From Theionarchaea archaeon (GTDB lineage: Archaea > Methanobacteriota_B > Thermococci > Methanofastidiosales > SZ-28-30), in NCBI GenBank assembly GCA_018992565.1, contig JACVGW010000008.1, forward strand, positions 1-60,733: 60,733 bases of DNA, in the 5' to 3' direction. Under the pieces are notes generated by a model. That model was not told where the DNA came from, ran no database searches, and was given only the letters and a program-made list of their open reading frames with translations. Each line of letters opens with the position of its first letter. Position 1 is the first letter of the stretch. Positions 8,968 through 9,474 of the stretch are shown piece after piece. The translations under genes and the position numbers were made by a program.

Positions 8968-9474
8968 ATGGAAAAGAAAAGGCTGTCGATCGCAACAGTG
9001 GGTATAGTTGTCGCATTGCTTACAATAATGTTTGCCACTGCCACTTCCTTGATGGCTGATACTCCATTGTTCACTTTGAGAATGGAGCAGGTAAGCAGTA
9101 AGATGAGCTTTCTGCCTACAGTAATGAACGGCTTCACCTACCACACTGAGAATGGGTACACATTCAGCAACTGTGCTGCAGGATACTGTGGTGGTGCAGG
9201 ACTTCTTGGTACAGACGCAACCTGCCACCCTACCTGTGATACATGCGCTGCCACATGCCCTGATACATGCTACAATACATGCCCTGATACATGCTACAAT
9301 ACATGCCCTGATACATGCGTTGCTACATGCGTTGCTACATGCCCGTACACATGCGATGACCCCGTAACGTGCCATGGAGAGCACACCTGTCAGGAGACAT
9401 GTGGGTATACCTGCCCTGATTCGTGTGGGGGGACATGTTACGGAGAAACCGAATGTTCTCCCTGCCCTCCCTAA
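8968..9474 (+). CDS. Secreted Cys-rich protein with TCxx repeats
   Basis: Strong RBS AAAAGGAGGTGATACT-ATG; basic-hydrophobic signal peptide; 22 Cys, 17 of them as Thr-Cys; T-rich tract after the stop. Confidence 0.85.
   Translation: MEKKRLSIATVGIVVALLTIMFATATSLMADTPLFTLRMEQVSSKMSFLPTVMNGFTYHTENGYTFSNCAAGYCGGAGLLGTDATCHPTCDTCAATCPDTCYNTCPDTCYNTCPDTCVATCVATCPYTCDDPVTCHGEHTCQETCGYTCPDSCGGTCYGETECSPCPP
9241..9360 (+). repeat. Ten tandem 12-bp units ACATGCNNNNNN (intragenic)
   Basis: ACATGC recurs every 12 nt; CCTGAT x3, TACAAT x2 and GTTGCT x2 variants. Confidence 0.95.

Follow-up and report, generated by a model that had tools for sequence, protein, structure and literature searches.

A family of exported-type archaeal proteins with a conserved N-terminal module and hypervariable Thr-Cys repeat tails

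What could an archaeon gain from a protein that ends in a long series of Thr-Cys units? This question is raised by a gene at positions 8968..9474 of a 60,733-nt stretch of DNA from a Theionarchaea archaeon (contig JACVGW010000008.1 of assembly GCA_018992565.1), the whole of which is referred to here as the window. The initial annotation, made from the letters of the DNA, described the product as a signal peptide followed by a Cys-poor spacer and a Cys-rich core, and this layout has held up: a hydrophobic helix occupies aa 1-30, aa 31-67 are free of Cys, and 20 of the 22 Cys of the protein lie in aa 85-168, nearly all of them directly after Thr and spaced by four residues, mostly as T-C-x-x. 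The gene belongs to an exported-type, multi-copy and rapidly diversifying leader-core family, in which Thr-Cys is the only fixed feature of the tail. As to function, the reading tentatively preferred here, which draws on sequence features, structure models and analogy, is that of an exported protein whose free thiols would bind metal, metal sulfide or sulfur.

The Thr-Cys repeat genes are a real, selected gene family, beyond what chance would produce, because seven further paralogs and 47 homologues exist and because all eight codon pairs are used for the T-C dipeptide. The source genome (2.8 Mb in 154 contigs, 88% complete) carries eight family copies on eight contigs, and a word-indexed search recovered the 47 homologues at E<=0.001 among 117 candidates scored; those that are named are all called "hypothetical protein" and come from metagenome-assembled genomes labelled Theionarchaea or Candidatus Methanofastidiosia. 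The paralogs and orthologs that the initial annotation had proposed to look for, conserved in the leader but divergent in their Cys cores, are thus present, among the eight own copies, the 47 homologues and their alignments. With a profile of the N-terminal part, searched against 1.84 billion representatives, 247 clusters (50% identity) matched at E<=0.001 and 239 at E<=1e-10. Among the cluster matches listed (150 of 247), proteins are 59-281 aa long, and the match starts at or before residue 25 in 140 of these 150 and at or before residue 97 in the others. Of the 179 stored homologues that have a recognisable motif and 25 aa or more of tail, 177 are Cys-rich in the tail (median 21% Cys), and the two that remain look frameshifted.

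The N-terminal part is the constant one. The pre-sequence ahead of the conserved module has a median length of 32 aa across the family, its best 15-aa Kyte-Doolittle window has a family median of 2.69, and 67 of 75 members have an n-region with a net positive charge. An AF2 model of the window protein, built on a 75-sequence alignment, contains a single helix at residues 2-30, with block values of pLDDT (the predicted local distance difference test) of 82, 94 and 77, so that aa 1-30 are taken to be either a signal peptide of the Sec type or a signal anchor. Beyond this N-terminal helix the model predicts no fold anywhere in the protein: mean pLDDT is 51.8, 109 of 168 residues fall below 50, and each 10-residue block past residue 40 has a mean of at most 50. 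Within the module of ~37-45 aa that directly follows the helix, P33, L34, R38, M39 and S43 are invariant in a 62-row alignment (A3), and in a 75-row alignment (A2) L34, R38 and M39 are still invariant, with P33 and S43 nearly so. Median pairwise identity over the 36 aa of the module is 0.67, and it is 0.53 among the eight own paralogs. The same octamer, GGAGGTGA, or GAGGTGA precedes all eight paralogs as a ribosome-binding site, and a TTTATAA-like box, read from the sequence, lies 30-45 nt upstream of most of them. Three of these paralogs, L005 (C55), L006 (C30) and L008 (C68), have a perfect GGAGGTGA or GAGGTGA, yet no ATG, GTG or TTG stands at the expected distance; the codon at the start position is ATA in two and ACG in one, and these may be non-canonical start codons.

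The tail is the variable part, and among the own paralogs its residues other than Thr and Cys are identical at only 0.19, against 0.53 for the leader. Across the family the tail is made up of 20.7% C, 20.7% T, 9.7% P, 11% D+E and 2% K+R, with 3.7% Y and 2.2% W. Cys follows Cys at a distance of four residues in 631 of 1252 intervals, of five in 228 and of three in 167, and Thr stands directly before 978 of 1203 tail Cys (81%) and at position +3 of 624 of them (52%). The unit C-x-x-T-C, a pattern that by itself is silent on cross-links, occurs 554 times in 73 proteins; its first x is most commonly Pro (32%), and its second is mostly N, S or D. Exactly on Cys is where 27 of 73 tails terminate. 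A Thr-Cys dipeptide every 3-5 residues is the sole rule that is constant in tails across the family, and since all eight codon pairs are used for it (701 cases in 56 genes), T-C is kept at the protein level and not by homogenisation of DNA repeats alone. One family gene, at L056:18198-18614, has the usual signal and module followed by a WPPDT-type repeat tail with only 2 Cys, so that the module is able, if rarely, to carry another type of repeat.

How such tails come to differ can be seen where copies stand together. Tandem arrays occur, with six genes in ~8 kb at L037 and three genes in 2 kb at L054. The DNA of the L054 triplet is 97-100% identical from about -50 to +280, a span that covers ribosome site, signal, module and linker, whereas identity in the Cys-rich part is uneven and much lower: copies 1 and 2 are alike to about +340, and both share ~50% with copy 3 from +280. 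L054 is, then, a homogenised 5' cassette with divergent cores, and cores of the family would diversify through repeat slippage and recombination behind such a homogenised 5' module. The initial annotation had the core of the window gene expanding by 12/24-bp slippage. The recent duplication is real, as a 24-bp unit is present in 2.8 copies that are 97% identical, enclosed in a 12-bp periodicity at 9237-9354, both detected with Tandem Repeats Finder. Ongoing expansion is possible; the contigs of all three DNA runs break within the repeat (9253-9318), with no indel listed.

The family is narrowly distributed. It is absent from all 132 further genomes of its GTDB class, among them two from its own genus and one from its own family that have no member even at E<=10, and 185,579 species-representative genomes yield one family locus. 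JGI metagenome contigs provide 111 relatives, which come from few samples, and a scan of a viral contig collection found no relative. DNA near-identical to the window copy is present in runs of seven studies, labelled marine sediment, mangrove, sediment and soil, two of the studies being labelled less specifically. Scans of the window protein with Pfam and NCBIfam matched no family at E<=10, Pfam scans of seven homologues matched none either, and a search of the ESM Atlas with the window protein gave no usable match. A precomputed label, PF27846.1, whose model lies outside the Pfam copy scanned, stands on 7 of the 47 homologues, and the family may thus already be catalogued, probably without a function. 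Literature searches on Cys-rich or radical S-adenosylmethionine (radical-SAM) peptides of Theionarchaea and Methanofastidiosa, judged in part by title and start of abstract, found no description of the Thr-Cys family. It is a lineage-restricted, patchy and uncharacterised family from sediment archaea that is not filed under any tested family. The features of the window gene are collected in Table 1.

Table 1. Features of the Thr-Cys repeat gene in the window and the basis on which each was assigned (ORF, open reading frame).
Feature	Position	Strand	Basis
Whole gene, 168 aa + stop	8968..9474	+	sole long + strand ORF there; own protein recovered at 100% match
Shine-Dalgarno-like GGAGGTGA	8956..8963	+	4 nt 5' of ATG, from sequence
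aa 1-30, K/R-rich start and hydrophobic helix	8968..9057	+	AF2 helix, residues 2-30; family hydropathy
aa 31-67, conserved Cys-free module, consensus TPLYTxRMEQASSKMNFLPTxxNxFTYTTExGY	9058..9168	+	alignments
aa 68-84, loosely conserved linker with C69, C74, GYCGGAG	9169..9219	+	alignments
aa 85-168, hypervariable acidic (T-C-x2-3)n tail, 20 Cys	9220..9471	+	sequence; AF2 block-mean pLDDT 34-50
24-bp tandem repeat x2.8 (TCPDTCYN units), 97% identical	9253..9319	+	Tandem Repeats Finder
T-rich run, ~30 nt 3' of stop	9505..9523	+	seen in sequence

If the tails were modified, genes for the enzyme might be expected to accompany them or to be recognisable elsewhere in the genome. ORFs were called in 83 loci (75 fetched and 8 own, with flanks of up to 10 kb) that together hold 103 family genes; loci that share proteins at least 95% identical were merged into 54 non-redundant contexts, and the neighbours were clustered. 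The background was taken from a single genome, while the contexts are unbinned contigs of related organisms, whose neighbours have a median identity of 60% to source-genome proteins (275 of 463 have a homologue there). Nine neighbour families recur in these 54 contexts, and no enzyme family is enriched among them. Radical-SAM/SPASM ORFs are abundant in the source genome, numbering 74 at E<1e-10, 76 at E<1e-5 and 69 at E<1e-20 (36 contigs), and those of this type near family loci are ~445 aa long. Near family genes, they occur at background frequency: 4 of the 54 contexts have one within 2 kb, 5 within 5 kb and 12 within 10 kb, against 8.6, 13.8 and 19.5% expected (P 0.69-0.36), and the own loci give the same picture, with a radical-SAM gene within 10 kb in 2 of 8 against a background of 19.5% of genome bases (P=0.48). 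Where radical-SAM genes are found close by, they share just 20-35% identity with one another. Beside radical-SAM genes stand precursors of 40-55 aa with a shared leader (xxLNKKxWxD type), Cys-rich cores and no hydrophobic signal, and one of these is located within the C30 cluster, the one nearest to a family gene. This expansion of radical-SAM/SPASM genes with short precursors can be observed outside the window, for example at C13:34-50 kb, C30:25-33 kb, C29, C97 and C105. The two same-genus genomes that have no family member also have radical-SAM expansions, with 15 and 10 matches.

Models of individual enzymes were searched as well. The best match of the source genome to TIGR04463, the CrpC family, reaches 230 bits, below the cut-off of 525, and the radical-SAM gene 747 bp upstream of the C30 paralog, which scores best against the CefB and TIGR04463 models, remains far below their cut-offs (CefB, 116 bits against 600). 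A complex prediction for this protein with the conserved module (aa 28-82, with alignment) returned a score of 0.01 and a mark of 0.32 with no controls, and weighs neither way. YcaO is represented by a single gene, on contig C46, where none of the eight paralogs is found. The LanC and LanB models PF05147 and PF04738 have no match in the 88%-complete source genome, and the control genomes are equally silent. The double-Gly site that had been proposed at GYCGGAG fares poorly: the stretch is present, but a GG pair is found in just 25 of the 75 linkers, and the C39 peptidase model PF03412, positive in seven control genomes, has no match in the source genome, so that the idea of double-Gly/C39 processing fails. 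Of the proposal of a modified peptide whose maturase lies elsewhere, the conserved leader, the variable core and the SPASM-rich genome are borne out, but a link to a maturase is not, with radical-SAM genes at background.

What the cysteines do in the finished protein is the point on which the possible readings divide. The initial annotation offered two alternatives, of which the metallothionein-like secreted chelator is possible. The other, a disulfide ladder, would make the protein a structural fibre or envelope component in which every Cys is paired, giving a rigid cross-linked stalk or sheath. The very high and periodic Cys content and the predicted export signal would suit it, but of 75 members 38 have an even and 37 an odd number of Cys in the mature part, the source genome gives no match to the DsbA and VKOR models, whose controls are positive, and AF2 predicts neither a solenoid nor any other confident fold; a fully disulfide-bonded ladder is thus unlikely, and the anoxic sediment indicated by the run labels speaks further against a fibre of this kind, which is the least probable of the readings considered. 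It could also be imagined that these are secreted hypervariable effectors, comparable to conotoxins, whose pro-module is cleaved outside the cell and whose tail then acts on competitors or surfaces in a bacteriocin-like or adhesin-like manner. In that sense, the fast evolution of the tail relative to the leader, the tandem arrays (up to six genes in 8 kb), the patchy, accessory distribution (0 of 132 other genomes of the class) and the weak enrichment of YD/RHS-repeat proteins nearby (4 of 54 contexts, P=0.003 uncorrected) are all compatible with effectors. The tails, however, lack a conserved cleavage motif that would separate them from the module, no pattern of immunity or export genes is seen among the neighbours, and neither a fold nor the even-Cys framework of Cys-knot toxins is present, so that an effector role appears improbable as well.

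A more serious competitor is a RiPP-like protein (RiPP, ribosomally synthesised and post-translationally modified peptide) matured in trans, with the module serving as leader for a radical-SAM/SPASM or other distant maturase before export. Each Cys would be joined to the Thr at the end of its own C-x(1-3)-T segment, so that small thioether rings of the ranthionine type would abut one another, or else Thr would be dehydrated and methyllanthionine formed; the logic would resemble that of prochlorosins, with a single enzyme for many scattered precursors, and that of CrpA/CrpC, where a whole protein is cross-linked. The leader-core layout with hypervariable cores, seen at its sharpest in L054, where 5' parts 97-100% identical precede diverging cores, is consistent with it, as are the strict coupling of Thr to Cys at a ratio near 1:1 and the C-x-x-T-C units with Pro first and N, S or D second, which presumably are beta-turn-like. 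Favourable, too, are the ~74 radical-SAM/SPASM ORFs in 2.8 Mb and the C30-upstream enzyme, with its best scores against CefB and TIGR04463. Radical-SAM Cys-to-Thr thioethers are documented (PMC8172795), and CrpC cross-links a Cys-rich archaeal protein of 28.8 kDa that has a 47-aa N-terminus in common with its paralogs (PMC13692751). On the other hand, the radical-SAM genes nearby are at background, are dissimilar among themselves, have their own short signal-less precursors, even in the C30 cluster, and are also expanded in same-genus genomes that do not have the family, and the CrpC model stays at less than half its cut-off. The 27 of 73 tails that end on Cys leave that residue with no acceptor downstream. 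A Sec-type signal ahead of a leader would, moreover, be unusual for RiPPs. Maturation in trans is therefore regarded as possible and rather doubtful. Its most specific form, an archaeal counterpart of the prochlorosins in which a single trans-acting enzyme, of the radical-SAM/SPASM or another type, reads the TPLYTxRMEQ module and turns the hypervariable (C-x-x-T)n tails of at least eight scattered genes into Cys-Thr thioether ladders, is a little less probable still.

The reading as an exported free-thiol chain proposes that the tail faces the anoxic, sulfidic sediment on the outside of the cell, where its cysteines would remain free thiols rather than disulfides and would form a multivalent thiolate chain for thiophilic metals, metal-sulfide surfaces or sulfur species, while the conserved module would be a shared pro- or docking element through which the protein is exported, anchored or processed. 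It is suggested by the predicted export signal (AF2 helix at 2-30, positive n-region in 67 of 75), the acidic tail poor in K and R, the lack of a linked enzyme family, the improbability of disulfides and the sediment habitat. An analogy adds to this, since Cys-rich proteins of Methanococcus voltae increase on pyrite and one of them is abundant extracellularly, as the relevant sections of PMC9431491 and PMC13692751 report. Several points weigh against it nonetheless. Metal binding alone leaves the Thr before 81% of tail Cys and the ~1:1 ratio of T to C unexplained, and pairwise Thr-Cys chemistry would explain both; a conserved leader with a hypervariable core, scattered copies and tandem identical 5' modules is the signature of RiPP precursors; and aromatic residues at the level found here (Y 3.7%, W 2.2%) are unusual for classical metallothioneins. 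Since two same-genus genomes do without the family, it would not belong to core metal homeostasis in any case. The free-thiol polymer and the substrate cross-linked in trans are close in likelihood.

The contexts do contain one strong association, and it is with a candidate regulator. A protein of ~365 aa is the only strongly enriched neighbour of the nine recurrent families, found in 13 of 54 contexts against 4.2% expected (P ~3e-7) and at 3 of 8 own loci (P=0.0035), often directly upstream or divergent; examples are L098:431-1519 (C111) and L093:4616-5719 (C147). It is present in 10 copies in the source genome, belongs to no Pfam family, and its profile weakly matches an archaeal LrpA in the PDB (E=0.002). 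Its AlphaFold model (pLDDT 91) is a tandem of two Lrp/AsnC-like units, and in a fold search of the PDB it matches fused siroheme decarboxylase NirDL best (E=2.9e-8), with many Lrp/AsnC regulators coming next. From this model it is taken as a local regulator, by which expression of the Thr-Cys genes would probably be set, and a NirDL-like enzymatic role is possible. The tandem-Lrp protein also exists in the two same-genus genomes that do not have the family, with eight matches in each. At C32:1014-2968 a close paralog adjoins a different membrane-anchored protein, one with HPTHPP repeats, which hints at a general association of this Lrp-like family with variable repeat proteins that are secreted or sit at the surface. 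Enrichment is weak for a small winged helix-turn-helix protein (5 of 54, P=0.001) and for the YD-repeat proteins mentioned above, both uncorrected for nine tests. Paired membrane proteins of ~855 aa (ABC_transp_aux, DUF4350, GldG-like) adjoin some family genes, as at L094:1768-6890 (C67); they are present in 4 of 54 contexts, an enrichment that is not significant (P=0.06 at 2 kb).

In the window itself the gene is solitary, because the nearest real genes lie at 6361-8007 (-), an AMP-forming acyl-CoA ligase-type gene, and at 10161-11282 (+), which encodes a DUF362 protein with a 4Fe-4S (ferredoxin) domain; this, and GGAGGTGA 4 nt from the ATG, agree with the description of a stand-alone gene with a very strong ribosome-binding site. 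The antisense ORF 8875..9384, longer than the gene, is a by-product of the repeat. For the T-rich run downstream, a role as archaeal terminator is possible, judging from its composition and place. Genes related to Fe-S surround this copy, namely a membrane polyferredoxin (4994-6319), the DUF362-Fer4 gene and a NifS-like cysteine desulfurase with NifU (12263-13830), but the idea that they hint at function was rejected, as the other seven paralogs have unrelated neighbours. A scan of window positions 7900-10200 against Rfam found no match. In one metatranscriptome run two identical short contigs (97 and 54 nt) map to 9186-9306 at a depth of 2.4-3.6, which is too little to claim expression, carry-over of DNA being possible. 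Upstream of the gene, in the intergenic window segment 8434-8731, a 99-nt stretch is duplicated exactly on both sides of ~100 N, with a start-to-start distance of 199, and this looks like an artefact of scaffolding or gap treatment and not like biology. Elsewhere in the window, 14384-17266 (-) encodes a 960-aa protein that has four or more PAS domains and a DUF835 at its C-terminus.

In anaerobic archaea, Cys-rich repeat proteins have recently been shown to receive enzyme-made thioether cross-links and are suspected of handling mineral Fe and S, according to the relevant portions of PMC13692751 and PMC9431491. The Thr-Cys family would be a second, unrelated-looking case with a cleaner architecture, in which an export signal and a conserved module precede a tail pared down to Thr-Cys units, in a genome whose ~74 radical-SAM/SPASM ORFs per 2.8 Mb are among the densest repertoires of this kind that we have met. 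Modified tails would represent a new class of substrate and a library of cross-linked polymers provided by nature; should thioethers be formed in trans, this library would be a combinatorial one, made up of "poly-ranthionine" polymers secreted into sulfidic sediment. Unmodified tails would amount to an extracellular thiol polymer of a new kind that captures metal or sulfur in euxinic sediment.

Among known systems, CrpA, CrpB and CrpC of M. voltae, as described in the main text of PMC13692751, offer the nearest parallel, in that CrpA, too, is a Cys-rich repeat protein from an archaeon and exceeds the size of a peptide. The common N-terminus of the Crp paralogs has 47 aa against ~45 aa here, both groups vary in a repetitive Cys-rich C-terminus for which no confident fold is obtained, and metal or mineral handling is suspected for both. 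The two differ in that CrpA adjoins its radical-SAM enzyme CrpC (TIGR04463), whereas Thr-Cys genes have no radical-SAM linkage above chance; in the repeats, which, compared by description only, are 17-aa units with C-x-x-Q/D in CrpA and T-C units of 3-5 aa here; and in the predicted signal peptide of the Thr-Cys family, a feature that the main text on Crp does not mention. Ranthipeptides, also called SCIFF (thermocellin, Tte1186a, freyrasin), likewise consist of repeated Cys-donor/acceptor motifs, and the sections of PMC8172795 devoted to them document Cys-to-Thr thioethers, six Cx3D rings and radical-SAM/SPASM maturases. Their precursors have ~45-50 aa, carry no export signal and are encoded beside the maturase, unlike the exported-type Thr-Cys protein of 168 aa. 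Prochlorosins (ProcA/ProcM; PMC10783134) share with the family the many scattered precursors with a conserved leader and a hypervariable core, which in their case are served by a single promiscuous enzyme. They differ from it by their Nif11-type leader, class II lanthipeptide synthetase, cyanobacterial hosts and lack of a signal peptide. "Cys-every-fifth" CefA/CefB, known from the name of the NCBIfam model NF038107, and on which a literature search found no paper, resemble the family in their periodic Cys and would be matured by a radical-SAM/SPASM enzyme, while the Thr-Cys period is mostly four, with Thr before Cys, and no CefA-like model matches. Finally, metallothioneins and Cys-lined copper storage proteins have, like the Thr-Cys family, ~20% Cys and C-x-x-x-C spacing, and some of them are exported. 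The Thr-Cys protein has no detected homology to these metal-binding proteins and stands apart from them by its richness in Thr, Pro and aromatic residues, its conserved pro-module and its hypervariability.

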